Positions 17,731-55,108 of a stretch of DNA of 64,000 bases are shown in pieces. A program made the translations under genes and the position numbers. A model generated the notes under the pieces. That model did no database searches. It had not been told where the DNA came from and was given only the letters and a program-made list of their open reading frames with translations. Source of the DNA: Rhodobacterales bacterium (GTDB taxonomy: Bacteria; Pseudomonadota; Alphaproteobacteria; Rhodobacterales; CAZPXZ01); contig OZ244777.1 in assembly GCA_965219495.1 (NCBI GenBank), positions 4,150,419 to 4,214,418 of the forward strand, read 5' to 3'. The stretch's first letter is position 1. The number at the start of each line of letters is the position of its first letter.

Positions 17731-17791
17731 AGCGCCGGACGGTGCGGCGGCGGTCGGCCTGTCACCGGTCACGGTTGCGGAGAGAGCGGCA

Positions 17792-24293: not shown

Positions 24294-24781
24294 GCCGCGG
24301 CGCCGGTTCGAGAGGCTCCGGGAAAAGCTGCGCGACGAGGAAGACGGCGTCGAGCGGATCGTGCGGGCGCTCCGCCATCTGGCCAGCAAACATCCGCGCC
24401 GGAAAGCCATCGCCCGGGAACTGGCCTTCTTCCGCAAGAACCGGCAACGCATGCGCTACGCCGCGTTCCAGAACCGGAAGCTGCCGATCGGCTCGGGGGT
24501 GGTCGAGGCTGCCAACAAGGTTCTCGTGACCCAGCGGCTTAAATGCTCCGGGATGCGCTGGAAGCTCGACGGAACCGGCCAATATGTTCTGAGCGTGCGG
24601 GCCTTATGGAAATCCCACCGATTTGAAGCGGCCTGGAGCGAAATCATCACCGCCCTGGAGCCTCCGGAATTCACGTTTCAAAATCGCAATAATGTCGTAA
24701 TAGCTGAAGTATTGCACTAAGCGCGCCCTTCAACTATTTACTCCATAGAAAATTTTCTCCCCCTCTGTATGCGCTTCACCT

Positions 24782-27324: not shown

Positions 27325-28410
27325 TCACGCGCGCTCGGACAGAAGGGCCAGGAGCGGGGGGTTGATGTAGAGGTTCTCGCGCCCAGCCTTGATTTCCTCG
27401 AGGAGGCCTTCGGCTGCGAGGGCTTTCAGATAGACGGCGGCCGTCTGGCGCTTGGCGATGTCCGCTTCGACCACGTCACTGATCCGGCAGTAGGGATTCA
27501 CGAAGATCAGTTCCGCCAGTTCGCGGGAGTAGATTTTCGGCATCCCCTGTCGAATTGCGGCGCCTGTCTCGTCGAGAAGCTCCCGGATCGCGCGGATTTT
27601 CGCCGTCGTCCATTCCGCCGTCGTTCTGACAGCCTCCAGAATGAAGAGTATCCATGCTTCCCAGTCCTGTCGGGTCGTCACCTCGAGCAGATACCGGTAG
27701 TAGAGCGCCTTGTTCCGGATGATGTGCCGGCTGAGATAAAGGACGGGAACGTCGAGCAGGCCTTTGTCGACGAGATAGAGCAGGTTCAGCACGCGTCCGG
27801 TCCGGCCGTTTCCGTCGACGAACGGATGGATCGCCTCGAACTGATAATGCATGACCGCAAGCCGGATCAGCGGGTCGATCTCCTCAGCCTCGTGAATGTA
27901 GCGCTCCCAATTGGCCAGTTTGCTCCGGAGAACGTCCTCTCCCTCCGGCGGCGTGTAGATGACCTGCTTGGTTGCATCGTTCACCAACGCCGTTCCCGGC
28001 GTGTTGCGAATGTCCAGCTCCACTCCCTTGATCGTTCGACAGACTTCGACCGCAATGGCGGTCGAAACCGGCCGTTGGTTCAGCATCTCGAATCCGCGGT
28101 GCAATGCGGTGCGGTAGCGCAGAGCTTCCCTGGTGGCAGGGTCGGCTCGACCCGTCGCGTCGTTGGCATAGCGGAACAGCCGGTCGGCCGTCGTCACGAT
28201 GTTCTCGATCTCGGAACTCGCCTGCGCTTCGAGCAGGGGGATCGAGTTGATCAGCATCGCCTGGTTCGGGATGAGATTCCCGGAGACGCGGAGCTCTACC
28301 AGTGCCGCGCGCGCGGCAATGCAACTCCGAAGAATGGCCTTGGTCTCGGTTTCCGAAGCCGGTGGCAGGTTCGGGAGGTCATTGAAGGGACGACCGGGAT
28401 CGAAGGTCAT
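27325..28410 (-). CDS. fic: Fic family protein adenylyltransferase
   Basis: HPFVDGNGRTGR; EAQASSEIEN inhibitory-type motif; start MTFDPGRPFNDLP. Confidence 0.93.
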   Translation of the reverse strand: MTFDPGRPFNDLPNLPPASETETKAILRSCIAARAALVELRVSGNLIPNQAMLINSIPLLEAQASSEIENIVTTADRLFRYANDATGRADPATREALRYRTALHRGFEMLNQRPVSTAIAVEVCRTIKGVELDIRNTPGTALVNDATKQVIYTPPEGEDVLRSKLANWERYIHEAEEIDPLIRLAVMHYQFEAIHPFVDGNGRTGRVLNLLYLVDKGLLDVPVLYLSRHIIRNKALYYRYLLEVTTRQDWEAWILFILEAVRTTAEWTTAKIRAIRELLDETGAAIRQGMPKIYSRELAELIFVNPYCRISDVVEADIAKRQTAAVYLKALAAEGLLEEIKAGRENLYINPPLLALLSERA

Positions 28411-28471
28411 GTCGATGTATCCAGCTCCTGTCGACACATTTTCCGAACATGTCGATTCCGTCGACATGTCA

Positions 28472-28514
28472 CCGCAACGTGTCGATGAAAAGAATATACA
28501 TCAACACGTTGCGG
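28472..28514. promoter_or_regulatory. Inverted repeat upstream of fic
   Basis: CCGCAACGTGTCGATG-N11-CATCAACACGTTGCGG (15/16 match). Confidence 0.5.
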
Positions 28515-28534
28515 TATGGCAAGCAGGGGGATGG

Positions 28535-28603
28535 GCAATGCCGCGCGCTGTCGATCGGGCGCTCCTCGCTCTACTACGAGCCGAAGGGGGCGAGGGCCGC
28601 GAG
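28535..28603 (+). mobile_element. IS3-family orfB scrap
   Basis: GQCRALSIGRSSLYYEPKG resembles the IS3 OrfB start (RQC.LL.I.RSS.YY.P). Confidence 0.5.
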
Positions 28604-28673: not shown

Positions 28674-29897
28674 TCACGCAGCGTCGGCGACGCTTTCCGG
28701 CCCGGCCAAAAGCGCCTCGATCCGGTCGGCGACATTCTGCGCCGGTTCTCGGAGTTGGGAGACGGTCCAGTCGGCGGCATAGCCTTCGGTGACGTCGTTG
28801 GGGCGGGCATGGTTGACGAGGCGCTTGGTGAGGGAGGAGGGCAGCATCAGCTCGCGCTCGGCGACGGTAATGAAGCAGTTGCGCAGGCCGTGGAACCAGA
28901 ACTTGGCGCCGCCGGCCTTGCTGATGCGGTGGTAGAGGTGATGGATGTCCTGCACATGGCCGGTGGCGCTGGTGGGCGAGGGAAACACCCAGTCGCGAAT
29001 GCCGGCAGGCAGGTTGTCGGCCGCCAGCCGGCGGCGCTCGAGAATGGCCGCGAGTTGCCGGGTGATCGGAAGCTCCAGGGGCGCGCCGGTCTTGGTCTCC
29101 TCGACCCGGAAGGTGAGCGCTGCCAGGTCGACCCGCTCCCAGCGGAGTGTGAGCACCTCCTCGCGGCGCATGCCGGTGTAGAGCCCGAACCAGAGAGCGT
29201 CCCGGATCGCCGGGTTGTGCACCTCCGCCTCGATCCCGGCGCGCCAGCACGGCAGCACCTCTGCCGGGGCCGAAATCTTGCGCCTTGTCTTTCGGTGGAA
29301 CTTGCCGCCGCCGGCGAGCCAGAGATCGACCGGATTGCGCAGCCCGTCCAGGTCGACGCAGGGCCTGCGGTAGACCGAGCGCAGAAGCGACATCGCCCGG
29401 TTGGCTGCAGACCAGCCGTGGTCGGCCGTGATGCTGTTGAAACGGGTCTCGACATCCTTGCGCGCGATAGCGTCGAGCGGGCGGGTGAGCCAGTCGCCCA
29501 GATACCGCTTCGCCTCGTAGCGGTAGAGCTCGTTGGTGCGCTTCGAGCGGTTGGGATTGGCCGCCATATACTCTTCGAAGGTATCTCCGAGCGAGGGCAT
29601 GCTGCGCGCCTCGGCGCGTTCCTCCGCCGGATTGTCGCCGTCGGCGACCTTGCCGAGGATCTTCTGTGCCTGTCGCCGCGCCTGGTCGGCCGTCACCTTG
29701 CCGTAGCGGCCGATGACGACGCGCTTGTTGGGCGCCTTCCGGCCACCGTCGCCGGCACGGTAGTTGACGATGAAGGACTTGGCGCCGCCGGGATGGACAC
29801 GGATGCCGAAGCCCACGAGCTTGTCGTCCCATGCGATCCATGACGTATCGGTCGGCTCAAGCGCTTCGATGATCCGCTTGGTGAGTGTCGTGCGCAC
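28674..29897 (-). CDS. Tyrosine integrase with N-terminal arm-binding domain (P4-like)
   Basis: 407 aa; WDDKLVGFGIRV..G.KSF; TGMRREE; KTG; HGLR; LVNH; GY. Confidence 0.93.
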   Translation of the reverse strand: MRTTLTKRIIEALEPTDTSWIAWDDKLVGFGIRVHPGGAKSFIVNYRAGDGGRKAPNKRVVIGRYGKVTADQARRQAQKILGKVADGDNPAEERAEARSMPSLGDTFEEYMAANPNRSKRTNELYRYEAKRYLGDWLTRPLDAIARKDVETRFNSITADHGWSAANRAMSLLRSVYRRPCVDLDGLRNPVDLWLAGGGKFHRKTRRKISAPAEVLPCWRAGIEAEVHNPAIRDALWFGLYTGMRREEVLTLRWERVDLAALTFRVEETKTGAPLELPITRQLAAILERRRLAADNLPAGIRDWVFPSPTSATGHVQDIHHLYHRISKAGGAKFWFHGLRNCFITVAERELMLPSSLTKRLVNHARPNDVTEGYAADWTVSQLREPAQNVADRIEALLAGPESVADAA

Positions 29898-30061
29898 CTT
29901 CGCGGTACGTTTTCCGGTGTTCGTTGTGAGCGCTCAGTTTGATTGCTGGATGTATTTTCACGCTGTCTGATGGAATGAGGGCTGTTGGGGCCGATTTTGC
30001 GCGGTTTGGACGCCGGCGGTCTTGGGTTGCGGACGTTGTCCGTTGGATAGTTTGATTTTTC

Positions 30062-31892
30062 GTAACTGCCCAGCACTCAGTCTCGCGCGTACGTGAAGGC
30101 TGCGCAAGGCTTGCGTTTGAAATTATACATGCTTGGGGCGGGACCGGCGTGGCGGCAGCGGGCAGGGCGTATGGAGCGGTTTAGCATTGGATTTTTCCGA
30201 TCAGTTGGTTCGGCGATGTCATCAAGGTTTCGATGATGTTCCAGCCCTGCTTTCTGGCGGTGGTGATGGCGCTGCGCAGGGTGGCGAAGTCTTGGGTGCC
30301 TTTTGGGGAGCGGAACCCGCCGGAGATTTTCTGGCGCAATTTCCCCATTCGACCATCGCGTTCGGCTTCATTATTGGTAAACGGAACGTCGGCGTCGGTG
30401 AGGAAACGCAAGGTCTCGGTTTTGTAGTCCTGGAGCCGGAGGGCGAGATTGTGTCCGGCGCGGCGTTTCTTTCGCCCGCGTTTGCCGGGCTCCGGCGGCG
30501 CGAGCGGTGGCTGCGCCTCATGAAAGGCGAGCGCCTCGGCGAGGATCCAATCATAGGTTCGCCCGATCCGGTCGAGCAGCGTTTCGGGGGGAGGTCTTGC
30601 CATTGTTCTGGCGAGATGAACGACCCGATTGGCGCGCGACAGGAGCCGGTGCATATGCCGGGCCCAGTCCTCTTTTTCGATGTCGATCAGGGCTTGAAGT
30701 TCGCGCAGGTGATGGGCGTTGCAGAGGGCGTGTGAAACGCCGCTGATCTTGAAACAGGGCTTCCAATGATCGTGAACGACACAACCGGAGAACCCCGCCA
30801 GCAAGTCGCCGCGCTTTTCGTGGACGCGAAACAAGGTCAGCCATGGCGTGCAGGCAATGTGGAGCCACTGCGTGCGCCCGCCAACCCGGAAGCCGGTCTC
30901 GTCGAGATGCTTCACCGGCGCCTTGCGGACGATCAGCTCCCGCACATGGTTGACGAAACCCTGGAACTGCTCGGCCATCCGGCGGCTCATCGCCGCCAGC
31001 GTCGCGGCGCACACGGGCGCGTTGAACAGGTCGGCCATCAGTTGCGACAAACGATCCTCGGGCAGGAAATGCGCATGGCTCAGATAGGCCGCCACCGCCG
31101 CCATGCGCGGACCATACTGCACCGGCGCCGTCACGCCTGCGGGAAACGCCGCCCGTGTCGTCGCGCCGCAATGACCGCAAACGCAACGGTGAGCGCGGTG
31201 CTCCGTGGCCTCGAGGGGGCGCGGCTCCGGCAGGTCGAAGACCTGTCTTGCGACATGGCTTTCATCCCCGTCCGCAGCCGACAGCGGCGCGCCGCAGCCC
31301 GCACAGTGCGACGGATGATGATCCTCGACATGGTCCGGCCTGTCGGTCCGGCGCAAGGTCGAGCCCGCGTGCCCGGGCTGCCCGCCGCTCGGCCTGCCCG
31401 ATTTGCCGCGCTGGCTCCTTGTCCGGGGCTCCGCCCGCGGCTTCTGCAGCCCGTCACTCGAAGGAGGCTTGCTGCTGTTCCGGCTGTTCCGGCCAAGCTG
31501 GCGCTCCAGCTCTTCAAGACGTTGCCGCAGGGTCGCGTTCTCGGCTTGCAAACCAGCGAGCTGTTCGCCTTGCGCCGCGAGTTGCTCGTCCTTTTGTTCG
31601 AGTTGCTCCCGCAAAGCCTCAATCTGTTTCGTTCCGCCATCATCATGCGGCGCCCCTTGCGCCGGGTGGGTCGGCCCTGAAAAAGCCGGCAAGAACCGTC
31701 GGGTCTGAAAGCGAATCGCCATGCCGCTATAAATAGCGCAGGTTGAATTCTGTTACCAGTCCCTGGTGTTACCAGTAATTTTTCGAGAAAGAACTGTTCT
31801 CGCCCGTGTAACCGTCACAACCGGGCAGCATCGACCTTGCGGCAGTGGCGGGCAATGCACTCCGTGGTGCACGCACTTACCTGGGCAGTTAC
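30062..31892 (-). mobile_element. IS66-family element, single-ORF type (1831 bp)
   Basis: IR GTAACTGCCCAG at both ends; 8-bp duplication GATTTTTC at 30054-61 and 31893-900. Confidence 0.93.
30181..31722 (-). CDS. IS66 transposase
   Basis: 513 aa; NSRNSSKPPSSD, GGQPGH.G, HLDETG, VHDHW, LCNAHHLREL, FTNNEAERD. Confidence 0.95.
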   Translation of the reverse strand: MAIRFQTRRFLPAFSGPTHPAQGAPHDDGGTKQIEALREQLEQKDEQLAAQGEQLAGLQAENATLRQRLEELERQLGRNSRNSSKPPSSDGLQKPRAEPRTRSQRGKSGRPSGGQPGHAGSTLRRTDRPDHVEDHHPSHCAGCGAPLSAADGDESHVARQVFDLPEPRPLEATEHRAHRCVCGHCGATTRAAFPAGVTAPVQYGPRMAAVAAYLSHAHFLPEDRLSQLMADLFNAPVCAATLAAMSRRMAEQFQGFVNHVRELIVRKAPVKHLDETGFRVGGRTQWLHIACTPWLTLFRVHEKRGDLLAGFSGCVVHDHWKPCFKISGVSHALCNAHHLRELQALIDIEKEDWARHMHRLLSRANRVVHLARTMARPPPETLLDRIGRTYDWILAEALAFHEAQPPLAPPEPGKRGRKKRRAGHNLALRLQDYKTETLRFLTDADVPFTNNEAERDGRMGKLRQKISGGFRSPKGTQDFATLRSAITTARKQGWNIIETLMTSPNQLIGKIQC

Positions 31893-31899
31893 GATTTTT

Positions 31900-32835
31900 C
31901 TACTTGGAAAGGAAGGCGCCGAGGGTTTCGGATTTGAGCAGCATTTCGCTCCAGTCTGCGGCGCCTTTGGGCCTGAGGCGGCGGATTCTGGGGTCGCTTT
32001 CGGCGAGATGGCGGGCTGCGCGGTCTCCGGGGATGTCGGCGTCGTAGCCACAGAGGATTTGGCTGGGGGTCCATTGGTTCATCCAGGTGGGGATGCGGCG
32101 TGCGAGTCCGGCGGTGGATGCGACGGTGACGGGCTGTTTGGCGAGCTGCCTTGCAGCGAGGGCGTCAACGGCGCTTTCGGCGATCAGGACGGTTTCGGGG
32201 GGGATCGGTCCGGCAGCGATCCAGAATGCGCCGAGGCTTTTGCGGGAACCTGGCGCCATTGTCTTGCGTCCGCCGGGCCGGGGTTCGGCGATTTCGGCGC
32301 CGTTCGGGCGTCCTTCGGCGTCGGCGCAGACGAACACGGCGCGGCCGTACTGGTCGGCGTGCAGCCGCTTGCGCCTGTGGCACTGTTCGAGGAGCGCGGG
32401 ATCGATGCCGCGTTCAGCGGCGAGGGCGTCGCGGAGACGGGGCCATTGCGCGGGGTCGGGGCCGGGAATCCGGATGCGGGGTTGCGGGGGATTGTCGGGT
32501 GCGACGGTTTCAGCCTGCATTCCGGCGAGCCATTCGAGCGCTTCGGGGAAGCTTCGTCCGGTCGCATGGATGACGAAGTCGAGGGCGCCTCCGCCGCCCT
32601 GTCCTGCGATGTGATCGAAGAATTTGGATCCGTTGATGCTGACGATGGAGCCATTGCGGGTCCATTTCGCGCGGTCGCGCGGGTGGGGTCGGAAGCCGAG
32701 GGATTTTGCGACCGTTTGGAGCGGGACGGTCCTTGCCCGGGCGGCTGCTGTGGGCGGTGTTTCCGGTTTCCGTTTCCCTGCGGTCCCGGCGGACCGGGGG
32801 AAACGGAACCGCTCAGGATGCGATCCGGCAGCCAT
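31900..32835 (-). CDS. Toprim/primase-like protein (DUF3991-toprim type)
   Basis: GGGGALDFV.H; VLIAESAVDAL; LCGYDADIPG; KGAADWSE; start uncertain. Confidence 0.75.
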   Translation of the reverse strand: MAAGSHPERFRFPRSAGTAGKRKPETPPTAAARARTVPLQTVAKSLGFRPHPRDRAKWTRNGSIVSINGSKFFDHIAGQGGGGALDFVIHATGRSFPEALEWLAGMQAETVAPDNPPQPRIRIPGPDPAQWPRLRDALAAERGIDPALLEQCHRRKRLHADQYGRAVFVCADAEGRPNGAEIAEPRPGGRKTMAPGSRKSLGAFWIAAGPIPPETVLIAESAVDALAARQLAKQPVTVASTAGLARRIPTWMNQWTPSQILCGYDADIPGDRAARHLAESDPRIRRLRPKGAADWSEMLLKSETLGAFLSK

Positions 32836-33778
32836 TCGGGGTGCTTTCGACGCGGCCCTCGTCGACCAGTTCCTTGAGCGCCTGGACCACGGCCTCGGCC
32901 CGGATGCCGGCCCGGGAGCGCAGCTCCCTTTGCGGCATCGGCGCCTTCGCCTTTGCGAGGACGGCCTCGATGCGCTGGCGGGGGGTGTCGGCGGGGGGTT
33001 GTTCGGCGTCTGCGTCGTCGACATGGAGCGCGAGTTCCGGGGGACGGGCCCTGAGTTCGAGGGCCAGTTCGGGGCCGCTGGGCAGCCCCCGGTGCTCGGC
33101 GTTGAGCAGGATGCGGCGGCTTCCGCGGCGCTGGAGGTAGAGCAGGGAGTCGGCCCAGGCGTGAAGCTCGGTGGAGCCGCGCAGCGCCTGTCCTCCGCGC
33201 CGGTGGCCGTCCTTGCGGGCGTGGTGGACCAGCAGCACGGCGCATCCGAAGCGGACCTGGAGTTCGCGCAGCGATCCGAGCAGGGGGGCGATCTCGCCGG
33301 CCTGGTTCTCGTCGACCGCGTGCAGCCGGACCAGCGGGTCGAGGGCGAGCAGCCGGGGCCGGACGCGTTCGACGGTTTCGGCCAGCCGGACCCGGTCGGC
33401 GGCGACATCGAGGCGCAGCCGGGGGGTGTCGATGATCTCGATGTCGAGGCTGTCCAGGGCGCGGCCTGCGGCGCGGGCGATGCCGCCGAGCCGTTCGCGG
33501 AGAATGTGCCGGGCGTCCTCGGCGGCGAACAGCAGCGCGGTTCCGGGGGCGGCGACGGCGAACCGCCGCAGGCAGCGGGCGCCGGTGGCGACGGCGACGG
33601 CGATGTCGAGCGCCAGGAAGGACTTGCAGCACTTCGGCTCGCCGCCGATGATGCCCACCGCCTGGTCGCCCCAGAGCTGCTCGACCAGCCACTTCTCCGG
33701 CTCCGGCCTGGCCTCCAGGTCGGCCGGGCGGAAGGTGGGGAAGCCGCGCCGCCTGGCGCCATTGCCGGGCGGACTCAT
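32813..33778 (-). CDS. RecA/RepA-like AAA_25 helicase with C-terminal wHTH
   Basis: WLVEQLW; GGEPKCCKS; LALDPL; LVHHARK; LRGSTELHAWAD; ATG overlaps the ExeA stop. Confidence 0.85.
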   Translation of the reverse strand: MSPPGNGARRRGFPTFRPADLEARPEPEKWLVEQLWGDQAVGIIGGEPKCCKSFLALDIAVAVATGARCLRRFAVAAPGTALLFAAEDARHILRERLGGIARAAGRALDSLDIEIIDTPRLRLDVAADRVRLAETVERVRPRLLALDPLVRLHAVDENQAGEIAPLLGSLRELQVRFGCAVLLVHHARKDGHRRGGQALRGSTELHAWADSLLYLQRRGSRRILLNAEHRGLPSGPELALELRARPPELALHVDDADAEQPPADTPRQRIEAVLAKAKAPMPQRELRSRAGIRAEAVVQALKELVDEGRVESTPNGCRIAS

Positions 33779-34599
33779 CGCCGCGCCCGGGCGGTGTCGG
33801 GATAGGCCTTGAAGTAGAGCGCCATGTCGATCCGGTCCTCTTCGCGTTCGGCGGCGGACCTGAGCAAGGCGTCGCCCATGATGGTGAGGGAACGCAGGTT
33901 GCCGCCGCAGTGGGCGCACAGGGTGTGCTTCAGTTCGGCGTCCATCAGGCCGGGGTTGCCGGCCTGCTCCAGCATGTGGTCGAGGCTGGCCTCGAGGTCG
34001 GCCGGCTCGGCGAAGCCGAGGTTGAGCCGCAGGCGGACGCGGGACAGCAGCGGCAGCAGGTCGGGCCGGCGCATGCGCGCCAGCAGTTGGGTGTCGCCGG
34101 CCAGGATGACGGCGAGGATGCTGCGCGAATCGAACTCGGTGGAGGACAGCAGCCGCAACTCGCCCAGCACTTCCGGGGCTGCCGCCTGGGCCTCGTCGAT
34201 CAGCAGCACGGGGCGCAAACGGGTGCCGTCGAGATGCGCCGCCCAACTCTCGCGGAGGCCCTTGAAGCCGGACCACAGGTTGCCGGCCAGCATGCCGACG
34301 CCGAACAGTTCCGCCATCTCCCGGTAGAAGTTCGAGAGGCTGGCGCTGGCGTGGCTCAGGGAGGCGGTCTTGAGGTCGGCGCGCCGGGACAGCGCCTCGC
34401 CGACGATGCGCAGCGCGGCGCTCTTTCCGGTGCCGGGTTCGCCGCTCACCATCGCGAAGCCGCCATGCGCCAGCAGGTGGTTCTCGACCTGCCAGCGGAA
34501 GCTGGCGATCTGCGGCGTCTCGCGCAGGGCCGAGGTCGGCGCATCCGGCAGGAACGGATTCCATTTGAGCCCGAAACGGGCGTGCAGCCTATGATCCAT
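33775..34599 (-). CDS. ExeA/TnsC-like AAA+ ATPase (transposition helper)
   Basis: 274 aa; FGLKWNPF; GEPGTGKS; LLIDEAQ; ILAGD; GNLRSL. Confidence 0.9.
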   Translation of the reverse strand: MDHRLHARFGLKWNPFLPDAPTSALRETPQIASFRWQVENHLLAHGGFAMVSGEPGTGKSAALRIVGEALSRRADLKTASLSHASASLSNFYREMAELFGVGMLAGNLWSGFKGLRESWAAHLDGTRLRPVLLIDEAQAAAPEVLGELRLLSSTEFDSRSILAVILAGDTQLLARMRRPDLLPLLSRVRLRLNLGFAEPADLEASLDHMLEQAGNPGLMDAELKHTLCAHCGGNLRSLTIMGDALLRSAAEREEDRIDMALYFKAYPDTARARR

Positions 34600-35198
34600 C
34601 GCCGTCCTCCTCTTCGATCTCGTCGCACGGAACGTAGGGCGGCGGCAGGCCGGTGGCCGCGAACTCCTCGAGCATCCGTTTCAGCAGCGGCGCGTCGTCG
34701 CCGCCATCCGCGCGTTCTTCCGGGGCGTCCGCTGCGGGATCGATCCGCCGTCGCCGGCCGTCGGCGTTGGCCGCCAGGTCGACCGGAAGCAGCCGGCACA
34801 TCTCCGCGCCGCGCGGGTCGACGGCGGTGGCCGTCGACAGGTCCCAGCGGGCGAAACGCACCCGCAGCTTGCGCAGGCGCCGGAAGCGGGAGGGAACCTC
34901 GAAGCGGACACCCCGGAGCGACACCGTGCCGTCCGTCCGCCGCTGGGTGCGGTACTCCTGCAGGCGGAACGACGCCCGCAGGGCCTCCGGGCCGGGACAC
35001 GGGCGACCGGCATCGGGGCCCGCGAGCAACCGCTCCAGCGGCGTCGAAGCGATGCTGCGGTGGCGGCGCCGGTTATAGTCGCCCTCGGCCCACACCGAAG
35101 TGATGCGGTTCAGTTCCGACAGCGTCAGCTCCCGGCAGCCGCCGATCATCGGAAGCAACCGGCTTTCAACCAAGCCCCGGAAGGCTTCCACTTTACCG
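34589..35198 (-). pseudogene. Mu/TnsB-like DDE transposase, C-terminal piece
   Basis: NGKVEAF..., YNRRRHRSI..TPL, RTQRRTDGTVSL.GVRFEVP (Mu-transposase C-like). Confidence 0.88.
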
Positions 35199-35199
35199 T

Positions 35200-35502
35200 T
35201 TGAGTGAACAGACAAGTGCACCTGAAGGTCACGGTGCGACGACGGCTTTCACGGTCACTCACCCGTTTCATCCGCTGAACGGCCGCACCTTCGATCTCCT
35301 GGAGATCAAGCTCTGCTGGGGTGAGATGCGCGTCTACTGGCTTGACGAGGCCGGTGGTGTGCGGCGCATCCCGTTGTGCTGGACCAGTCTGGAGACGCCG
35401 GACCCCTTTGTGGCGGTGTCGGCCGGACGCTCCGCGTTCCGTGTCCTGGATCTTCTGGCGCTGAGCGACCTTGTCGCCTCGCTGCGCGGGGACGTGTCAT
35501 GA
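35200..35502 (+). CDS. DUF5372 (Y4bD-like) small protein, lacks an ATG start in the integrated state
   Basis: VTHPFHPLNG..F...WTS..PDPF...AGRS.FRV.DLL.L. Confidence 0.75.
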   Translation: MSEQTSAPEGHGATTAFTVTHPFHPLNGRTFDLLEIKLCWGEMRVYWLDEAGGVRRIPLCWTSLETPDPFVAVSAGRSAFRVLDLLALSDLVASLRGDVS

Positions 35503-35709
35503 CTGTCAAAGAGATTATGCCGCAATATGTAAGAACATTTATGCCGATGTATGGTGACGTGCCCCAGGCGATCATCGGATCGGTTGATGTCGACTGCATC
35601 GCAACTCGCTGTTGTTGGCGTATAATCCCCAATGAACAGTGCGAGAAGCTTGACGACGCCCTCCTGGTGCGGCATATATATAATGACAGTTTCGCGAAAG
35701 GAACCCCCC

Positions 35710-36165
35710 ATGCCGAAGAGCGACGACAAGACATCAAACCTCAAGAAGCATGGCGCCCTCAACCGGCATCCCGAACAGGTGCGCGACCCCCTGTTCCTCG
35801 AAGAGGCCTTCTTCGATCCATGCGACCTCGTTCAGGTCCGCTACGAGATGCTGCGGCGGGTCACGAAGGACGGGCAGCCGGTGAGCAAGAGCGCGCGCAC
35901 CTTCGGTGTCTCCCGGCCCACCTGGTACCAGGCAGCAAAAGCCTTCGAGGCCGGGGGCCTGCCGGCCCTTCTCCCCGAGAGACCGGGACCAAGACGCGCC
36001 CACAAGCTCGACGAGGCCGTGGTCAGGGCGCTCATCAAGGCGCGCTCGGCAACGCCCGCCATCACCACCGCAGAACTCGTCGCCCTGGTACGCGAACGCT
36101 TCGCTCTTTCCGTTCACCGCCGCAGCATCGAACGGGCTCTGTCCCGTGCCAAAAAAAACCTCTGA
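35710..36165 (+). CDS. HTH protein of the LSR element
   Basis: FFDPCDLVQVRYEMLR; FGVSRPTWYQ; GPRRAHKL; VHRRSIERAL. Confidence 0.85.
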   Translation: MPKSDDKTSNLKKHGALNRHPEQVRDPLFLEEAFFDPCDLVQVRYEMLRRVTKDGQPVSKSARTFGVSRPTWYQAAKAFEAGGLPALLPERPGPRRAHKLDEAVVRALIKARSATPAITTAELVALVRERFALSVHRRSIERALSRAKKNL

Positions 36166-36449
36166 AGACACCGCCGCCGTGTGTCGACCCACAACACACG
36201 ACCGGGGAATACGAACATCTGCGCCAATCCAGAGAACACGCCGACAGCATCGCCAGACACCGCGGGCTCGCCATCCTGACCGGCCACGGCATGGCAGCGT
36301 GGCTCGCCATCCTCGGCCAGGCGGCAGCACCCCCGGAACGCCGTCACGATCCCGCAATGCGCCTTTCCCGGGATCTCGAAGCCGGTCTGATCGACATCAT
36401 CGTCGCCATTGCCATGAACCAGACAAGGGAGACCCGCCATGAGCCGTGA
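36150..36449 (+). CDS. Small accessory ORF without a clear start (possible -1 frameshift fusion to the HTH protein)
   Basis: YEHLR...GLAILTGHGMAAWL; opens in the -1 frame at an A8 run. Confidence 0.55.
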   Translation, partial: QKKPLKTPPPCVDPQHTTGEYEHLRQSREHADSIARHRGLAILTGHGMAAWLAILGQAAAPPERRHDPAMRLSRDLEAGLIDIIVAIAMNQTRETRHEP

Positions 36450-38523
36450 GAACCACAAGGTGACGGAGCGTCATCTGGCCCGCAACGCCTATCTCTACAT
36501 CCGCCAGTCGACCCTGCGACAGGTGGTCGAGAACACCGAGAGCACACGGCGCCAGTACGAACTGCGCGATCGTGCCCATGCGCTCGGATGGCCGATCGAG
36601 AAGGTCATGGTCATCGACTCCGATCTCGGTCAGTCGGGTGCGGACCGGGACCGCGCCGGCTTCAAGAACCTGGTCGGCGAAGTCTCCGTGGGTCATGCCG
36701 GCATCGTCCTCGGTCTCGAGGTCTCCCGGTTGGCCCGCAACTCCAGCGACTGGCACCGGCTGCTCGAGTTCTGCGCCCTGACCGACACCTTGATCCTCGA
36801 CGAGGACGGTGTCTATGACCCCTGTGACTTCAACGACCGCCTCATCCTGGGGCTCAAGGGCCAGATGTCGGAAGCCGAGCTTCACATGCTGCGGGCGCGC
36901 CTGCAGGGCGGCATTGCCAACCGGGCGAAGCGTGGCGAACTCAAGGTGCGCCTGCCCGTCGGCCTGGTCTATGATCCGCTCGACCGGGTGGTTCTCGATC
37001 CCGATGCCCAGGTGCGCAACAGTGTTACGCTGCTGTTCGAGACCTTCATGCGCACCGGATCGGCGATGGCCACCGTCAAGGCGTTCCGCGCCACCGGACT
37101 GAAGTTCCCCCGAAGGCCGTGGAGCGGCCCGCACAAGGGCACACTGCACTGGGACGAACTGTTGCATTCGCGGGTCCTGCAGGTTCTCCACAATCCCCGC
37201 TACGCTGGCGCCTTCGTGTTCGGCCGCCAACGAAGACGGCGTCTGCCTGACGGCACGTTCGCCTACAGGCGCGGATCCCACGAAGAGGCCACCGTGCTGC
37301 TGCGCGACTGTCATCCCGGCTACATCACCTGGGAGCGCTTCGAGGCCCACCAGCAACGCCTTGCCGAGAACCGGACATCCGGCGCGGACAGCCGGCGACC
37401 GCCGCGCGAGGGACCGGCTCTCCTCCAGGGCCTCGCGCTGTGCGGCCTGTGCGGCAGCAAGATGGCGGTCAGCTATCATCTGCGCCGCAACTGTCAGGTT
37501 CCGGACTACATCTGCCAGCGTCAGACCCTCGATCACAGCCTGAAGGCGTGCCAGCGTGTGCCGGGTCGGCGCATCGATCAGGCGATCGCAGAGTTGCTTG
37601 TCGACCTCATGACACCGACGACACTGGAAGTGGCGTTGCGCGTGCAACAGGACCTCGAGGCACAACTCGAGCAGATCGATGTCTGGCGCCGCCAGCAGGT
37701 GCAGCGTGCCCGCGAAGAGGTCGATCTCGCACGCCTGCGGTTCATGAACACCCATCCCGACAATCGCATGGTCGTCGATGCCCTGGAAGCTGAATGGGAC
37801 GCGAAGCTGCGCTATCTCGACACGGTGCGCCACGACTGCGACCGGCGCCGGGACGAACAGCGCAGGCAGCTCGAGACCGGCGAACGCGAGCGCATCCTCG
37901 AGCTTGCCTGCGACTTCCCGAAACTGTGGCGCGACCCGGCAACTCCGGACCGTGAACGCAAGCGCATGATCCGGCTCCTGGTCGAGGACATCACCATCAC
38001 CGGCGGTGAAGAGATCGGACTCGACATCCGGCTGCGTGGCGGCGCCACGCGCCGGATCGCTGTCACGCCGGACCCGCCGAGATGGAAGACGATGGTCACC
38101 CCGCCCGGCGTGATCGATCGGATCGATGCATTGCTCGACGCTCACAGCGACGGCGCGATTGCCGATCTCCTCAACCAGCAGGGCTATCGGAGCGGGACTG
38201 GCCAGCTCTTCAACAAGAAACTGATCCAGGCCTTGTGCTGGCGCCGTGGTCTGAAGACCCGTTACAAGCGTCTGCGCGAACGCGGCCTGTTGACGCGCGA
38301 GGAAATGGCGCAACGCCTCGACATCCAACCACTCACGGTGGTGCTATGGCGCCGACAGGGCCTGCTCGTCGGTCATCCATGGAACGACAGGAACCAGTGT
38401 CTCTACGAGATGCCGGACCCCCCACCCGTCAGAAACACGCACAAGCTCGCCCGGATGCAAAGAGCCGCGTCGGATCACGCTCACCAGAGTGCGCAGGATC
38501 CGGCCAGGCAGGAAGAACGATGA
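36439..38523 (+). CDS. Large serine recombinase (resolvase, recombinase and Zn-ribbon domains)
   Basis: 694 aa; AYLYIRQST, DSDLGQSG, EVSRLARN, HNPRYAG, CGLCG...C...C. Confidence 0.95.
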   Translation: MSRENHKVTERHLARNAYLYIRQSTLRQVVENTESTRRQYELRDRAHALGWPIEKVMVIDSDLGQSGADRDRAGFKNLVGEVSVGHAGIVLGLEVSRLARNSSDWHRLLEFCALTDTLILDEDGVYDPCDFNDRLILGLKGQMSEAELHMLRARLQGGIANRAKRGELKVRLPVGLVYDPLDRVVLDPDAQVRNSVTLLFETFMRTGSAMATVKAFRATGLKFPRRPWSGPHKGTLHWDELLHSRVLQVLHNPRYAGAFVFGRQRRRRLPDGTFAYRRGSHEEATVLLRDCHPGYITWERFEAHQQRLAENRTSGADSRRPPREGPALLQGLALCGLCGSKMAVSYHLRRNCQVPDYICQRQTLDHSLKACQRVPGRRIDQAIAELLVDLMTPTTLEVALRVQQDLEAQLEQIDVWRRQQVQRAREEVDLARLRFMNTHPDNRMVVDALEAEWDAKLRYLDTVRHDCDRRRDEQRRQLETGERERILELACDFPKLWRDPATPDRERKRMIRLLVEDITITGGEEIGLDIRLRGGATRRIAVTPDPPRWKTMVTPPGVIDRIDALLDAHSDGAIADLLNQQGYRSGTGQLFNKKLIQALCWRRGLKTRYKRLRERGLLTREEMAQRLDIQPLTVVLWRRQGLLVGHPWNDRNQCLYEMPDPPPVRNTHKLARMQRAASDHAHQSAQDPARQEER

Positions 38524-38597
38524 CGCCTCGAGCCTGCGCATCAACGACAACGTTATCGTGTGCTGCCGAAGCCGGGCACGCGGACAAGGAGAACACG

Positions 38598-38885
38598 ATG
38601 GCCCTCAGCCCCGCAGAGAAGCAGCGCCGCTACCGTGAGCGTCTCAAGGCCGGCGCCAGACCGGTCCACTATCGATGCCCCCGGGACAGGCGCTCAAGGC
38701 CGCAACGCTGGAAGGATGCCGTGGAGATCCTGATCGCCCTGCAGGAGCACTACAGGACATGGCTCGAAGCCCTGCCGGAGAGCCTCCACGACACGACGGT
38801 CCACGCGATGCTGGAGACGATCAGCGATCTCGACCTCGAGGAACTCCGGGACGTCGAACTGCCCCGCGGATATGGACGCGACTGA
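38598..38885 (+). CDS. Small hypothetical protein
   Basis: 95 aa; AGGAG RBS; MALSPAEKQRRYRER...LPRGYGRD. Confidence 0.7.
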   Translation: MALSPAEKQRRYRERLKAGARPVHYRCPRDRRSRPQRWKDAVEILIALQEHYRTWLEALPESLHDTTVHAMLETISDLDLEELRDVELPRGYGRD

Positions 38886-39072
38886 TGACACCCGATACGG
38901 TCACGTTACCATGTACGGTTGAAATCCCGGTCGCCACCAACGCAGTTCCAACCGACGGCGGGGCGGACGCGAACCTTGAGTACAACGGCACGGGAACGGC
39001 TCTGATCAATCAAACATGTTCCCATCGAACCCATGGAGTGCAGTATGAATCACAGTCCTTCTGCTGCGGACT

Positions 39073-39933
39073 CTAGGGACGCGTCGTCACCCGCAGAATG
39101 CCGAGTTCCTCAAGCCCGTTCACCACCTCGCCGGCCGCCATCGCCGAGCCGTTGTCGACCATCAGGGACCTGGGACAAGTGCGCTTGAGAAGCGCCTGCA
39201 CAAGGCCGTGAACAAAGCTCCGGGCGCTCTCCGAGAAGTACCATTGCCCATGGCAGAGAAGCCGCGAACGGTCGTCGATGAACGTCAGCAGCACCGGCTT
39301 GATCCATTCGCCGCTGCGCCGCAGCACCCGCAGCGAGCCCGTGTGGAAATCCGCATGCCACAGGCCATGCACCCGCTCGACCTCGTAGCCGCGGGTCTCC
39401 AGCTGCGAGCGCCGCCGCAGCGCCGCCGCCTCGCCGGCAAGCATGCGCCGTCCGGGCCGCGTCCGTCGCAACCCCTCCGCCCGCATGAAGCGCAGCACCG
39501 ACGGATAGGACGGAAGCGGGCTGAACGCCGGGTCGGCGCCGGCGACCACGACCAGGTTGTCGTAATGCAGCTGCACCGTCCAGCCGGGATGCGCGGCGTA
39601 CTGGCGGCGCAGCGTCTCCGCGATCCGCGGGGTGAACGAGCGCTGGAAGCCGGCGTCGGAGCGCCGGCGCTTGCAAAGCGCCCCCACCGGATCGCTGTCC
39701 TCCGCCCGCGCCAGGTAGTACCACCGCTCGATGGTCGCCGCCGCGAACCGCACCGGCTCCGCCGTCGCGGGGTGGCGCCAGTCCCGGGACGCCAGGCGCT
39801 CGAACTCGCGCCCCAGCCCGCCGGCCGCCGGCGGCGACGCCAGAAGCGGCCCCACGATCGAGAAGCGCAGCCGCGCCCAGCCGTCCCGTCCACCGTTGCC
39901 TCCGTCCATTCCGTCCCCCTTCCTTGCAAGCAA
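39073..39933 (-). pseudogene. Mu/TnsB-like DDE transposase, N-terminal piece
   Basis: LRFSIVGPLL; HTH; WHADF; FIDDRSR; VDNGSA; ends P*SPQQ with TAG in place of Tyr. Confidence 0.88.
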
Positions 39934-39947
39934 AGTCTCCGGAGAAC

Positions 39948-40568
39948 CTATGAAACGGAACCGGCCTCATGTCGCGCGGCAACTTCTGCGCGACCCCCGC
40001 CGGCCGCCGCCAGCCCGATCGAAACGGTCCACGGCAACAGCCACCGGAGCGCCCGCAGCAACCCGCCGCGGTCCCCCGCAACGCCGAACAACGCCAGCAG
40101 CGAAGCCGGAAGCGCGTCGCCCGCCGGAGGCCGCGCCAACCCGCCCCGCCGCGAGATCCATTGCGGCGTCCGCGGGAACGCCTCGCGCCACCACCGCCGC
40201 CAACGCCGAAGCGTCCGCCGGGCGATGCCGAGCCGCATGCGCAGCTTGCGCGCCGCCGCGCCGCAACCGCCGGAAAGCGCCGAAACCACCAGAAAGCATC
40301 CGGAGGCATAAACCCGCGAGCCGAAATAGCGCACCGAGGGCGGCGTCGACCGCCGCCGGCAGCCCTCCGAACCGCAGCAGAAGCTGAACCGCGTGAAGCC
40401 CTCACCCCGGCGGAAGCCGAGGCCACGGGGCTTGCGCGCATAATCCGCAACGTGAAGCCGCCCCCCGCAGTGGCCGCAGCCCGCCTCGCGAAACGCCTCC
40501 GCGATCGACGCGTCAATCCGGGTGAAAAGCGCCCACTCACTGGCGCCGACGAGGATTCCGTGCAACAT
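39948..40568 (-). CDS. Zn-finger/HTH protein upstream of the transposase (DUF6431-like)
   Basis: CGHCGGRLH, FSFCC...CRRR.TPPSVRYFG.RVY, RRTLRRWRRWW. Confidence 0.7.
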   Translation of the reverse strand: MLHGILVGASEWALFTRIDASIAEAFREAGCGHCGGRLHVADYARKPRGLGFRRGEGFTRFSFCCGSEGCRRRSTPPSVRYFGSRVYASGCFLVVSALSGGCGAAARKLRMRLGIARRTLRRWRRWWREAFPRTPQWISRRGGLARPPAGDALPASLLALFGVAGDRGGLLRALRWLLPWTVSIGLAAAGGGRAEVAARHEAGSVS

Positions 40569-40914
40569 TGATTCGTCTCTCCTGCGACATAACAAGAGAG
40601 ACAAACCCCCCGGGGATGCTTGTGCAAGCTCCCCGGGGGAACCGATCGACATTCATGCACGGAATCTGATCGGATCCACCCGATCCGGAATCAATCTATG
40701 TGAGCACGCACATTCGTCTCCATGAAGGGAGTATGGAATCGCACGAGAAACGCGTCAACACATGCGACAACACCAGAAAAGAAATGCTTGACACCCAATG
40801 GCCCTGTATGGCCGCATGGTCGAAGACTAGGAACCCCGTAACACCTTGGCTAACATGACTAAATGGCACTGTCTGGCATCGGTCGGCTTCCTCTGGCCCA
40901 ATATTGGAACGAGT

Positions 40915-40960
<46 letters not shown>

Positions 40961-48637: not shown

Positions 48638-48922
48638 TCGTACACCCGATGTTCACGTTATTCGTTCAGGAGATGCTGATGTCACTAGTGGACCAGGGCA
48701 GGCAACACGCCACAGACGTCGCGGAATTCTGGCCCTTTGGAAGAAAAGAGGTGTTCTGGTGAGGGTCGGCGATCCGTCGATTGAAAACAATGCCCGGGAC
48801 CAATGGCAAAAGCAGGAATTTGGCAATCACGAATGAGAAATGCGACTGGGTGGGACAGCGAGGTCCGTGACTGCGATGCCGAGGGCGGCATGGAGAACCT
48901 TCGGAGTGGAGGCCGGAACCAA

Positions 48923-49492
48923 TCAGAGCAACGCCGAAAACTGAGCCATTTCGGCGGCGGTAGCGACGAGCCCCAACCCGCCGAGGGTGGTGAGATAGTC
49001 TTGTACAGAGACGGGCGGTGCTGTCAGCCGCGCTCGTATCTTGCGGACGGCGTCGCAGAAGGGGCCGGGCATCAGGTCAAGGTGATTGGCAAGAAAGTCA
49101 TCGGGGTGCTGGACTTCGATTCCGTAGGGCACGACCGCGGCTTCTGGGAAGTCCCGCAGGTTGGAGGTGACGATCACGTCGCAGCGTCCGACTATTGCTG
49201 CTGCGAGAACATGACAGTCGTCGGGGTCGGGAAGGTCGAGTGTGGAGATAATCGTTTCGTATCCGGTGATCAGGCAATCCCGTGTTGCCCGATCCATGAG
49301 ATCGCGCGTCCGTTCCAGGGCTGCTCGATCACGGTGCGGTTCGTTGCGGATCAGGGCGTCGATCCACTCCCGATGGATGTCTGCGGTCCATTTCGCGCGA
49401 AAGAGATCGTCAACGGCCAATTGCAGAAAAATATCCCGCATCGGTGCGGGATAGAGAATGTTGGCGTCAAGGAGAGCCGTGAAGGCCGTCAC
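48923..49492 (-). CDS. PIN domain protein
   Basis: LLDANIL...LPDPDDCHVLAAA...IVTSNLRDFP. Confidence 0.9.
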   Translation of the reverse strand: MTAFTALLDANILYPAPMRDIFLQLAVDDLFRAKWTADIHREWIDALIRNEPHRDRAALERTRDLMDRATRDCLITGYETIISTLDLPDPDDCHVLAAAIVGRCDVIVTSNLRDFPEAAVVPYGIEVQHPDDFLANHLDLMPGPFCDAVRKIRARLTAPPVSVQDYLTTLGGLGLVATAAEMAQFSALL

Positions 49493-49953
49493 CGAGGGCC
49501 ATATCCCATATCATGGGCCTGAGCTTCGCGGGTCAGCTGTTCGAGCACCTGCTCTCGTTCCCGGTCGATGGCATTCTTGTATGCCATGACATCCTCCATG
49601 CGAATACGGCGGTGCTTGCCGACTTTCCGATGCGGGATGGCTTTCTGCTCAAGGAGTTTGATCAGGAAGGGACGGGAGACGTTCAGCACGTCGGCTGCCT
49701 GGACGGTGGTGAGCTCGGCGCTCTCCGGAATCAACGTAAGGCCCTGTCCCGCGGCCATGGCTTCCAGAACATGCATGAGCAGGTCGACCGCGCCTGCCGG
49801 GAGATCGATCGGTTGTTCCTGTTCGCTGTCTCTGACGCGCAGCTTCAAGGGCCGGTCCGTCCCGCCGTACGGCGAAAGAGCCTGGTAGGTGCTTCGTGCG
49901 ATCGCTGCGTCCCGCGGCGTGGGCGGGAGCTGTCGGTGAGCTAGCGTGATCAT
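49489..49953 (-). CDS. Excisionase-like HTH_17 protein (putative antitoxin of the PIN gene)
   Basis: ELTTVQAADVLNVSRPFLIKLL...KVGKHRRI; 4-bp overlap with the PIN gene. Confidence 0.9.
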   Translation of the reverse strand: MITLAHRQLPPTPRDAAIARSTYQALSPYGGTDRPLKLRVRDSEQEQPIDLPAGAVDLLMHVLEAMAAGQGLTLIPESAELTTVQAADVLNVSRPFLIKLLEQKAIPHRKVGKHRRIRMEDVMAYKNAIDREREQVLEQLTREAQAHDMGYGPR

Positions 49954-50735
49954 GTATGCCTCCCTGGAAGGCGTGACCCAACAGGGTCAAGATACGTATA
50001 TGAAATAAATGAAGCAAGCGAAGCAAATGTCAATAGGGGAGTTCTGCGTTGACATGCCGGCCGGATGGTCGACCGGGTTCATTCGGAAGGCGAGAATCTG
50101 TCAGTTTCCTGATCCACCAACAGATCCCCCCCCCCAATGCTCCCAGTGATCCGTGCGGCCGCCGTTTGGATGGAATCTCGTGCGAGGTGGGCGTAGCGGG
50201 CGGTCGTCTGGACTTGGGTATGCCCCAGGAGCTTGCCGAGTAGCAATGGCCAGCTTCCACTCTGAGGGTGGGAACAGGATTTTTACGATAGATTATAATA
50301 CCTTACAAGCTGAACTCGCATTTCACACCCTCAGTCCATTTTGCTTTGGGTACCGTATGGGTACCATTTCATTTCCAGTCCCAGCGCGTCGTTGGCTACA
50401 TGTGCCGCCTTTTGTCCACCCCATATTTCCACCATCGTGTTCGTTCGGTCATCGGGTGATGCCATCGCGTGGCGATCGCCTCGATTCTCGACATAGCGGT
50501 CACGAAAGTGCGGGTTCGCTCGACCGTGTCGTCCGAGACCTCGGATGGCGCATTCTCCAGGATCGGATCGAACGGGAGTCCGATACGGAAGGCGAGACGT
50601 AGTCTGAGGAGGTTGCGCCCGACCGGCCGTGACTGAGATGGGTGGGAGAGGGCCGTGACCCGACCCGCTCAACAGCGTGTCCATCGGCTCCCCACGTCGG
50701 GAATACAGCAAACAAAGCTACACTACATCTCCCGA

Positions 50736-54830: not shown

Positions 54831-55108
54831 CGCTCGTCTTCCTAACCTCCAGCTCCTTCACGCATTGCCAGGGACCTACTGGGACCGCGTTCTCAGATCG
54901 CGCCGCGTGCTCTCCTGCGCGCGCTGCCTTCGCAAGCCCGCGTCCAGACCAACCGGACCATCTCGTCACGTGATAGATCGCAACCCTTCCCGTCGGGGAC
55001 ACTCGGGCCGGCGGTAGTAGAGCCCCGGCGCCAGGTAGCCCGCTACGCAGTCCACCGGTTGTCACCTTCACTCAACCCTCGTCAGATGCCAACGCACACT
55101 TGCCGCAT

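Follow-up and report, generated by a model that had tools for sequence, protein, structure and literature searches.

Can a transposon bring along the machinery that replicates it? A 64,000-nucleotide stretch of the genome of a Rhodobacterales bacterium (GenBank assembly GCA_965219495.1, contig OZ244777.1, positions 4,150,419 to 4,214,418; hereafter the window) raises this question, because genes for a DDE transposase and an AAA+ ATPase are followed there by genes for a helicase-like ATPase of the AAA_25 family, a primase and a tyrosine integrase. A first-pass annotation, made from the sequence alone, had read these genes as one element in which a Mu/TnsBC-like core is coupled to a helicase, a primase and an integrase. 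Here we find that window 29925–40712 is a now-defective copy of a five-gene DDE transposon from a large family, and that the integrase is part of a tRNA-fMet island which the transposon entered at a point 23 nt ahead of the integrase start codon.

Boundaries of the transposon

The transposon ends in imperfect terminal inverted repeats of the 5′-TG...CA-3′ type (TGTG...CACA), and the same 5-mer, TTCGT, abuts both ends (Table 1). On the plus strand, TTCGT runs directly into TGTGAGCGCTCAG... from position 29925, within the short spacer between an IS66-family insertion sequence (IS) and the integrase gene, and at the other end ...GTGAGCACGCACA runs into TTCGT at 40712. Read on the minus strand, the end that terminates at 40712 (TGTGCGTGCTCAC) is of the same kind as the TGAGCG...CGCTCA ends of relatives, and the left end TGTGCGTGCTCACATAGATTGATTCCGGAT resembles both the other end of the window copy and the ends (TGAGCGTGCTCAC) of a multi-copy element at locus L004. 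The imperfect inverted repeat covers ~30 bp, and GATCGG/GATTA-type motifs are shared 30–60 bp inside the ends; no clear repeat array emerged. The first-pass annotation had proposed ends at 40712 and 28604 and seen no target duplication. The end at 40712 stands, paired with 29925, and a duplication flanks the true ends, whereas neither a mismatch search nor an inverted-repeat scan found anything near 28604 that pairs with the 40712 end.

A near-identical copy confirms the right end. The right half of the transposon is present, at 98–100% nucleotide identity, on a 22-kb contig of a Paracoccaceae metagenome-assembled genome (MAG; L008/L014). Because homology between this copy and the window ceases exactly at 29925, after ...CTCACA, and the flank beyond is different and has no integrase gene, the right end is independently proven. 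The proposal that transposase, ATPase, helicase and primase genes form a mobile unit is upheld, and the integrase, which lies outside the duplication and is missing beside the L008 copy, has to be removed from it. A search of metagenome contigs for the empty site, using an exact 24-mer across the reconstructed target, gave 0 matches.

Two foreign elements have been inserted into the window copy. Subtracting them (1,839 bp for the IS66-family element with one copy of its duplication, and 3,860 bp for a serine-recombinase element) gives a native size of ~5.09 kb (about 5,089 bp). We are highly confident of this anatomy, including the exclusion of the integrase.

Gene content of the transposon

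All five transposon genes lie on the minus strand and encode, in order, a Zn-ribbon/helix-turn-helix (HTH) protein, an rve-type transposase, an AAA+ ATPase, an AAA_25 ATPase and a primase. Gene calls and Pfam searches thus bear out the order of six co-oriented genes, integrase included, that had been reported. The overlapping junctions also proved real: the transposase and ATPase genes overlap by 11 nt, the ATPase and AAA_25 genes as ATGA, and the AAA_25 and primase genes by 23 nt, no start codon other than ATG 32835 being available ahead of the conserved primase domains.

The Zn-ribbon/HTH gene comes first in every four- and five-gene element, and its orthologues are 40–50% identical. Residues C31, C34, H39, C64, C65 and C70 are invariant (a CxxC...CC...C pattern). 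The protein had been labelled DUF6431, a family that neither it nor 11 orthologues match; it has no significant Pfam family, only weak matches to HTH_23 and HTH_28, and HTH_23 is found in 11 of 12 orthologues.

The transposase gene is split by an insertion. The two parts are 57% (up to residue 278) and 50% (residues 279–478) identical to an intact 491-aa orthologue, and the catalytic residues D187, D252 and E288 do not vary among 17 orthologues. The Pfam rve score of the window protein, ~31 bits, is just below the 32.6-bit cut-off; rejoined, the 486-aa protein matches phrog_310, annotated ‘transposase’, at 6e-32. Against PDB, the transposase profile matched retroviral integrase cores (~1e-8), Tn6677 TnsB (4.5e-7, in a match that reaches past the catalytic core) and IS21 IstA (9e-5). 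The profile of the adjacent ATPase matched MuB (8xvb, 8.4e-13) and ShCAST TnsC (9.5e-6) over nearly its full length, and the protein matches phrog_296, a ‘DNA transposition protein’, at 5.5e-20; it has no Pfam match to the IstB_IS21 domain. On these similarities, the label of a Mu/TnsBC-like core is fair at the level of the superfamily.

The fourth protein is likely a hexameric helicase, judging from its sequence relatives. Its AAA_25 profile has a single solved relative, the hexameric helicase RepA of RSF1010 (1g8y, 8.7e-12), and its best phage relatives in a phrog search are the helicase modules of phage primase-helicases. K52/S53 (Walker A), D147 (Walker B) and H186/R188/K189 of an HHxRK motif are invariant and H185 nearly so. 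Weak GntR and MarR matches at residues 267–315 predict a C-terminal winged HTH (wHTH) domain.

The fifth protein is by its modelled fold clearly a DnaG/T7 gp4-type primase, with primer synthesis as a putative activity. Its AlphaFold2 model has a predicted local distance difference test score (pLDDT) of 82.7, and every one of the 40 best PDB matches to that fold is a DnaG-type primase or the homologous Twinkle; T7 gp4 (1nui, 5.6e-7) ranks first, and DnaG proteins of Aquifex, E. coli and other bacteria are among the rest, as is T4 primase. Among the acidic residues of its Toprim domain, E220 and D265 are invariant and D267, the second Asp of the DxD motif, is nearly so.

No match to TnsA or TniQ models was found for any of the five genes in Pfam or NCBIfam. 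As the first-pass annotation had noted for TniQ, Cas and phage structural genes, none lies within the element; nor do packaging, phage-interaction, resolvase or polymerase genes. Nothing supports its description of the element as possibly satellite-like, no packaging or phage-interaction gene being present, and ‘self-synthesising’ is an overstatement for an element that encodes no polymerase.

Elements nested inside the transposon

The two insertions that the first-pass annotation had set aside are indeed foreign. A large-serine-recombinase element breaks the transposase frame between D252 and E288; its boundaries (Table 1) are accurate to a few bases. The IS66-family element, with terminal inverted repeat GTAACTGCCCAG, lies just past the primase stop codon and is flanked by the 8-bp duplication GATTTTTC at 30054–30061 and 31893–31900. 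Because the otherwise identical transposon in L008 lacks it, this insertion is recent. These two later insertions disabled and stretched the window copy. The region is therefore a set of four nested mobile elements, an island containing a transposon that in turn contains an IS and a serine-recombinase element, and not one composite.

The L008 copy is itself truncated within ~12 bp of the serine-recombinase insertion point, its homology to the window beginning at 35200; the shared breakpoint region near 35200–35216 may be a recombination hot spot.

Table 1 Features of the transposon, its insertions and the surrounding island (window coordinates)
Feature	Position	Strand	Details
Target-site duplication TTCGT, gene-upstream side	40713-40717		Identical 5-mer abuts opposite end
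Target-site duplication TTCGT, gene-downstream side	29920-29924		Directly abuts the 29925 end
Left terminal inverted repeat	40683-40712	minus	5′-TGTGCGTGCTCACATAGATTGATTCCGGAT on minus strand
Right terminal inverted repeat	29925-29955	plus	5′-TGTGAGCGCTCAGTTTGATTGCTGGATG on plus strand; pairs with the 40712 end
Zn-ribbon and HTH protein, 206 aa, first gene	39948-40568	minus	Start ATG 40568
DDE (rve) transposase, N-terminal 278 codons, with D187 and D252	39076-39909	minus	Pfam rve 31.6 bits
DDE transposase, C-terminal 208 codons, with E288	34589-35215	minus	Matches residues 279-478 of intact orthologue
MuB/TnsC-like AAA+ ATPase, 274 aa	33775-34599	minus	AAA_22 at 5.4e-18
RepA-like RecA-fold ATPase (AAA_25) with predicted C-terminal winged helix, 321 aa	32813-33778	minus	AAA_25 at 7e-36
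DnaG/T7 gp4-type primase (by fold), 311 aa	31900-32835	minus	Pfam DUF3991 and Toprim_2
Large-serine-recombinase element, ~3.86 kb, foreign to transposon	35216-39075	plus	Pfam Resolvase, Recombinase, Zn_ribbon_recom, DUF5372
Open reading frames of serine-recombinase element	35200-35502; 35632-36165; 36439-38523; 38595-38885		DUF5372; HTH protein; recombinase; small open reading frame
IS66-family element, foreign to transposon	30062-31892	minus	Single open reading frame (DUF6444, zf-IS66, DDE_Tnp_IS66)
P4-type tyrosine integrase, 407 aa, outside transposon	28674-29897	minus	Arm-DNA-bind_3 8.5e-19; Phage_integrase 2e-12
tRNA-fMet 3′ fragment (anticodon loop to CCA), likely att site of island	40916-40959	plus	Sequence read directly

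A large family of related transposons

Homologues of the core proteins are abundant. Among the 8,000 best candidates scored, at least 5,040 homologues of the ATPase and at least 4,902 of the AAA_25 protein were found; primase homologues numbered only 53. A scan of one genome per species gave 513 AAA_25 relatives, and 80 loci were kept for analysis of gene context. The first-pass reading would have failed had the helicase and primase genes not travelled with the transposase pair in other genomes; they do travel with it. In 80/80 loci the AAA_25 gene comes directly after the ATPase gene, and where the contig extends far enough the transposase and Zn-protein genes are found upstream. A primase gene is added in fifth position at 22 of these loci; the 22 come from six assemblies, among them Paracoccaceae, Rhodobacterales, other Alphaproteobacteria and an Acidimicrobiales MAG. 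Further family members were found in Dehalococcoidia, Chloroflexota, Acidobacteria and Deltaproteobacteria MAGs.

Multiple copies define the unit that moves. Four-gene elements measure 4,310–4,421 bp and five-gene elements 5,185–5,192 bp; the multi-copy elements of ~5.19 kb are each flanked by a target duplication. The 4,310-bp element (Zn protein, transposase, ATPase and AAA_25) was found at no fewer than six positions of a single assembly, and at one clean insertion site the flanking duplication is CATGC; a second assembly, a MAG, has the five-gene element with the primase at five or more distinct sites. Among the loci kept, one MAG contributed at least 17 full copies and another at least 22. 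When 49 copies from four MAG families were inspected, 21 had perfect 5-bp duplications and most of the others had 4-bp duplications offset by one base, as judged by eye; no obvious common target was found among the sampled insertion sites.

Two short-read contigs are the size of the element. One, of 5192 bp, starts and ends exactly at the element termini, and the other, of 5185 bp, has 1–4 extra bases at each end. We considered whether they are the extrachromosomal copies that the first-pass annotation had envisaged; both are linear and have no terminal overlap, as expected of collapsed-repeat contigs. A plasmid origin of the region was likewise rejected, since megablast against plasmids matched only the recombinase and the tRNA fragment, and tblastn with the AAA_25 protein found no match in 72,556 PLSDB records.

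The window proteins are 45–64% identical to their orthologues in multi-copy elements across all five genes. Primase divergence (45–52%) parallels that of the core genes, and primase-bearing lineages are interspersed among four-gene lineages in the transposase tree, which together suggest that the primase linkage is old and that the gene was lost repeatedly.

In assembly ERZ26694896 (L002, L003, L005, L006 and L007), 4,310-bp copies are repeatedly inserted into other copies of the same element, so the family seems to lack target immunity, which is typical of Mu, Tn7 and Tn3.

A three-gene variant (L035, L041, L089–L093, L070 and L074) carries an AAA_25-wHTH protein that is 58% identical, next to a transposase and ATPase pair that is only 25–28% identical. 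The variant has no detectable Zn-ribbon gene, is multi-copy and shares one MAG with a four-gene element. Its transposase matches Mu-transpos_C at 27.4 bits (cut-off 21.7) and its ATPase matches TniB.

We also noted where other copies lie relative to integrase genes. Of ten other sites with a tyrosine integrase within 8 kb, six (L013/L040, L081, L092, L048, L074 and L005) have it within ~1 kb of the transposon end and four (L010, L053, L057 and L090) do not, a proximity to which a crude binomial test gives ~5e-4. These integrases lie on either side of the element and on either strand, 0.2–7 kb away; the one at L081 is 74% identical to that of the window and lies on the opposite side. Insertion may be favoured at the borders of integrative elements or integrase-bearing islands.

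A proposed transposon-borne primosome and its alternatives

Taken as a whole, anatomy and mechanism together, our explanation of the region is reasonably probable. The best reading of the gene content would be a transposon-borne primosome that drives replicative transposition, and on this part, the role of the helicase and primase in replication, we are evenly divided. The transposase would nick the 3′ ends of the element and join them, with a 4–5-bp stagger, to target DNA prepared by the ATPase, and the product would be a Mu-type branched strand-transfer intermediate. Because no TnsA-like 5′-end nuclease is encoded, such an intermediate, which requires replication, is what one would expect. 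The RepA-like helicase would then load at the branched structure, to which its wHTH domain may guide it; the primase would prime the lagging strand, and host polymerase would copy the element without the host restart primosome (PriA/DnaB/DnaC/DnaG).

Several observations weigh against such a primosome. The model of the AAA_25 protein has a pLDDT of 70, and the folds of Rad51/RadA, DnaB, RepA and KaiC score about equally against it; because the fold search does not discriminate, the label ‘helicase’ rests on the RepA profile match and the adjacent primase. The N-terminal domain of the primase resembles a zinc-binding domain (ZBD; weak match to 1d0q) and lacks the conserved Cys4/CHC2 zinc ligands. 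Most lineages have no primase, which makes it dispensable, and no resolvase is present for the resolution of cointegrates. Neither the window transposase nor that of L009 has a Pfam Mu-transpos_C match, and the best NCBIfam matches of the window transposase, all sub-threshold, are to IS481 (83.6 versus 224 bits), IS21 (28.9 versus 160 bits) and IS3. Finally, the AAA_25 gene occupies the position that tniQ has in Tn5053, which makes a targeting role possible.

This last point leads to the first alternative, in which the AAA_25-wHTH protein selects targets or serves as an adaptor, as a functional counterpart of TniQ, TnsD or TnsE, rather than acting as a replicative helicase, and the primase is an optional accessory. 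The ATPase would be steered to particular DNA structures, for instance forks, single-stranded DNA gaps or the nucleoprotein complexes that form where integrative elements end. Such a function would suit the place of the gene after the transposase–ATPase pair and the predicted DNA-binding wHTH domain, as well as a fold as near to Rad51/RadA as to helicases. It would also suit the modularity of the protein, which, as in Tn7 selectors, stays 58% identical across transposase and ATPase lineages that are only 25–28% identical, and the insertions within 1 kb of integrase genes at six of the ten sites described above. However, the AAA_25 profile matches no solved structure other than the RSF1010 RepA helicase, its best phage families are the helicase modules of primase-helicases, the sampled sites share no obvious target, and an adjacent, co-diverging DnaG-type primase fits a primosome and not a selector. 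We therefore regard a selector as unlikely.

A somewhat lower probability goes to transposition by copy-out-paste-in, as in IS3, IS481 and IS21, with the helicase and primase driving circle-making replication or a short-lived episome for which the wHTH domain serves as origin binder. The lack of Mu-transpos_C together with the IS481 match keeps this route under consideration: the nearest curated transposase models are IS481, IS3 and IS21, albeit below threshold, IstA is among the PDB matches, copy numbers are high, and the putative helicase, with its C-terminal wHTH domain, recalls initiator-helicases of the P4 alpha kind. Yet the ATPase is MuB/TnsC-like and does not match IstB_IS21, the two ~5.19-kb contigs are linear without terminal overlap, abutted ends that would mark a circle junction were seen in none of the loci read, and the AAA_25 protein is unmatched in the plasmid records. 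We doubt that the family moves in this way.

That the integrase is instead a resolvase or integrase of the element itself, within a composite self-replicating or satellite-like integrative element, is very improbable: the integrase is co-oriented and near the primase, integrase genes lie near several other copies, and tyrosine recombinases act as resolvases in some TnsA-less Tn7-like clades (PMC8649781), but this one belongs to the P4 type, has an arm-binding domain and lies close to a tRNA-fMet 3′ fragment and outside both the 5-bp duplication and the inverted repeat, the near-identical L008 copy ends at 29925 in a different flank, nearby integrases elsewhere vary in side, strand and distance, and no repeat joins 28.4–28.7 kb to 40.6–41.1 kb.

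Comparison with known systems

With phage Mu (MuA and MuB), the transposon shares an rve DDE transposase followed by an AAA+ activator of target DNA, the ATPase having MuB as its best solved relative. The phage families that best match the two proteins bear the annotations transposase and DNA transposition protein, and the two systems have in common TG...CA termini, a 5-bp duplication and no 5′-end nuclease. Mu depends on the host PriA/DnaB/DnaC/DnaG primosome. The family described here, by contrast, carries a RepA-like helicase and often a primase, in ~5 kb that hold no structural, lysis or regulatory phage genes. It also differs from Mu in that the window transposase has no detectable Mu-transpos_C and in that nested self-insertions suggest a lack of target immunity.

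The order of transposase, ATPase and a third protein, the 5-bp duplication and the absence of TnsA recall Tn5053/Tn402 (TniA-TniB-TniQ-TniR) and the TnsA-less Tn7-like elements exemplified by the type V-K CRISPR-associated transposon (CAST); the ATPase aligns over its full length with ShCAST TnsC, and the related three-gene variant has Pfam matches to Mu-transpos_C and TniB. Unlike those elements, the family has no TniQ, resolvase, res site or CRISPR module, its third gene encodes a RecA-fold AAA_25 protein with a wHTH domain, a Zn-ribbon/HTH gene precedes the transposase, and the elements are cargo-free, IS-like and highly multi-copy. Membership in Tn5053/Tn402 was rejected, the only serine recombinase within the ends belonging to a separate inserted element, as was membership in the Tn7-like elements in the strict sense, since none of the five genes matches TnsA or TniQ/TnsD.

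IS21 (IstA and IstB) is likewise small, cargo-free and multi-copy and combines an rve transposase with an ATPase helper, and IstA is among the PDB matches of the window transposase. It differs in its sub-threshold model score (28.9 versus 160 bits), in the MuB/TnsC-like nature of the ATPase here, which lacks an IstB_IS21 match, and in the two or three extra genes. IS481 was rejected on its score of 83.6 versus 224 bits and on gene number, IS481 being a single-gene element and the present ones having four or five genes.

Like the primosomes formed by RSF1010 RepA and RepB′, T7 gp4 and P4 alpha, the transposon pairs a homologue of RecA-fold hexameric helicases with a primase, and the C-terminal wHTH domain of the AAA_25 protein recalls initiator-helicases. 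Unlike these plasmid and phage systems, it places them inside a DDE transposon, as separate proteins, with no RepC-like initiator, recognisable origin or polymerase, and the ZBD-like domain of its primase has no cysteines. Mobile elements, or partners of an IS, that bring their own replication proteins are known in casposons, pipolins, Polintons and the IS-excision enhancer (IEE). The first three carry the gene for a DNA polymerase (PolB or piPolB) and integrate by means of Cas1, tyrosine or retroviral-type integrases, and IEE is a PrimPol-helicase borne by the host or a prophage, outside the IS. The present family has a helicase-like protein, joined in some lineages by a DnaG-type primase; unlike casposons, pipolins and Polintons, it encodes no polymerase.

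The surrounding island and neighbouring genes

The GTG start codon of the integrase (29897) is 23 nt beyond the TTCGT duplication and, once the IS66-family element is removed, 163 bp past the primase stop codon, in agreement with the ~160 bp reported previously. In no other genome does an integrase hold a fixed position relative to the transposon. The tRNA-fMet fragment lies ~200 bp beyond the left end of the transposon and, without the transposon, ~1 kb from the integrase start. Because the 5′ end of the integrase is thus brought near the tRNA fragment when the transposon is removed, we infer a P4-type island, in which the transposon came to separate the integrase gene from the sequence upstream of it. 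The fragment matches many alphaproteobacterial replicons; ARAGORN found no complete tRNA gene in the window, and Rfam gave no match near 40.5–41.4 kb. A second tRNA-fMet 3′ copy, at 13527–13576, is in direct orientation and non-identical, with compensatory differences in the T stem. The two fragments suggest an island of ~27 kb or stacked islands, the tRNA-proximal end being outside the window or rearranged. Mobilization of the whole block by the integrase was considered and rejected, as a comparison of 28.2–28.76 kb with 40.6–41.1 kb for repeats gave a single 10-nt inverted match.

Otherwise the window is largely an IS-element mosaic. A Fic-family gene (Fic_N, Fic and SoFic-like_C) at 27325–28560 is preceded by several TGTCGA(T/C) repeats at 28428–28556, which may be its operator; one of these repeats is the source of the only inverted match to the left-end region of the transposon. 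At 21798–24452 and 56940–59603, two open reading frames of ~885 aa each encode an IS4/Tn5-type transposase with a fused DruA-like domain (Druantia). Separate DruA-domain genes adjoin IS66 transposases at the unrelated loci L002, L003, L008, L011 and L013, and DruA-like domains thus seem to be regular partners of transposases. The open reading frame at 16733–18100 has Toprim and topoisomerase-IA N-terminal fragments followed, at its C terminus, by an HU (Bac_DNA_binding) domain and may be a gene fusion or a remnant. A possible defence-like cluster at 45941–55879 comprises an 898-aa AAA_13/AAA_21/SMC_N ATPase, a 1,364-aa open reading frame without a Pfam match and a DUF2971 protein.

Novelty and significance

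The family is widespread and apparently undescribed, a Mu/Tn7-superfamily transposon with a putative built-in primosome module. None of the five proteins scored above the cut-off of any NCBIfam model, and public records give the genes generic names such as ‘AAA family ATPase’, ‘general secretion pathway protein A’ and ‘toprim domain-containing protein’. Full-text literature searches found no description of this architecture, although a name may exist in ISfinder or TnCentral, which lay outside their scope. In a survey of Tn7-like elements, primases and helicases are mentioned only as cargo or defence genes (PMC8649781). With some ~5,000 relatives detected for each of the ATPase and AAA_25 proteins (both counts being lower bounds) and dozens of copies in some genomes, recognition of the family would be of value to annotation.

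How a strand-transfer complex is handed over to a replisome has, to our knowledge, been worked out only for phage Mu, where it depends wholly on host restart. A small cargo-free family that is always accompanied by a homologue of replicative helicases, and often by a primase, is a natural experiment on this handover, and its five genes offer a tractable system in which to ask whether a mobile element can supply its own fork-loading machinery. Tentatively, we propose an abundant, unnamed class of replicative DDE transposons that carry their own primosome, composed of a RepA-like helicase, an origin- or end-binding wHTH domain and, in some lineages, a DnaG-type primase. If this is true, Mu-style transposition would have been freed here from the PriA/DnaB/DnaC/DnaG restart machinery of the host. 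Such independence could explain the spread of the family over at least the Alphaproteobacteria, Actinomycetota, Chloroflexota, Acidobacteriota and Deltaproteobacteria and its bursts to 22 or more copies per genome, and the family would stand midway between plain transposons and elements that replicate themselves.

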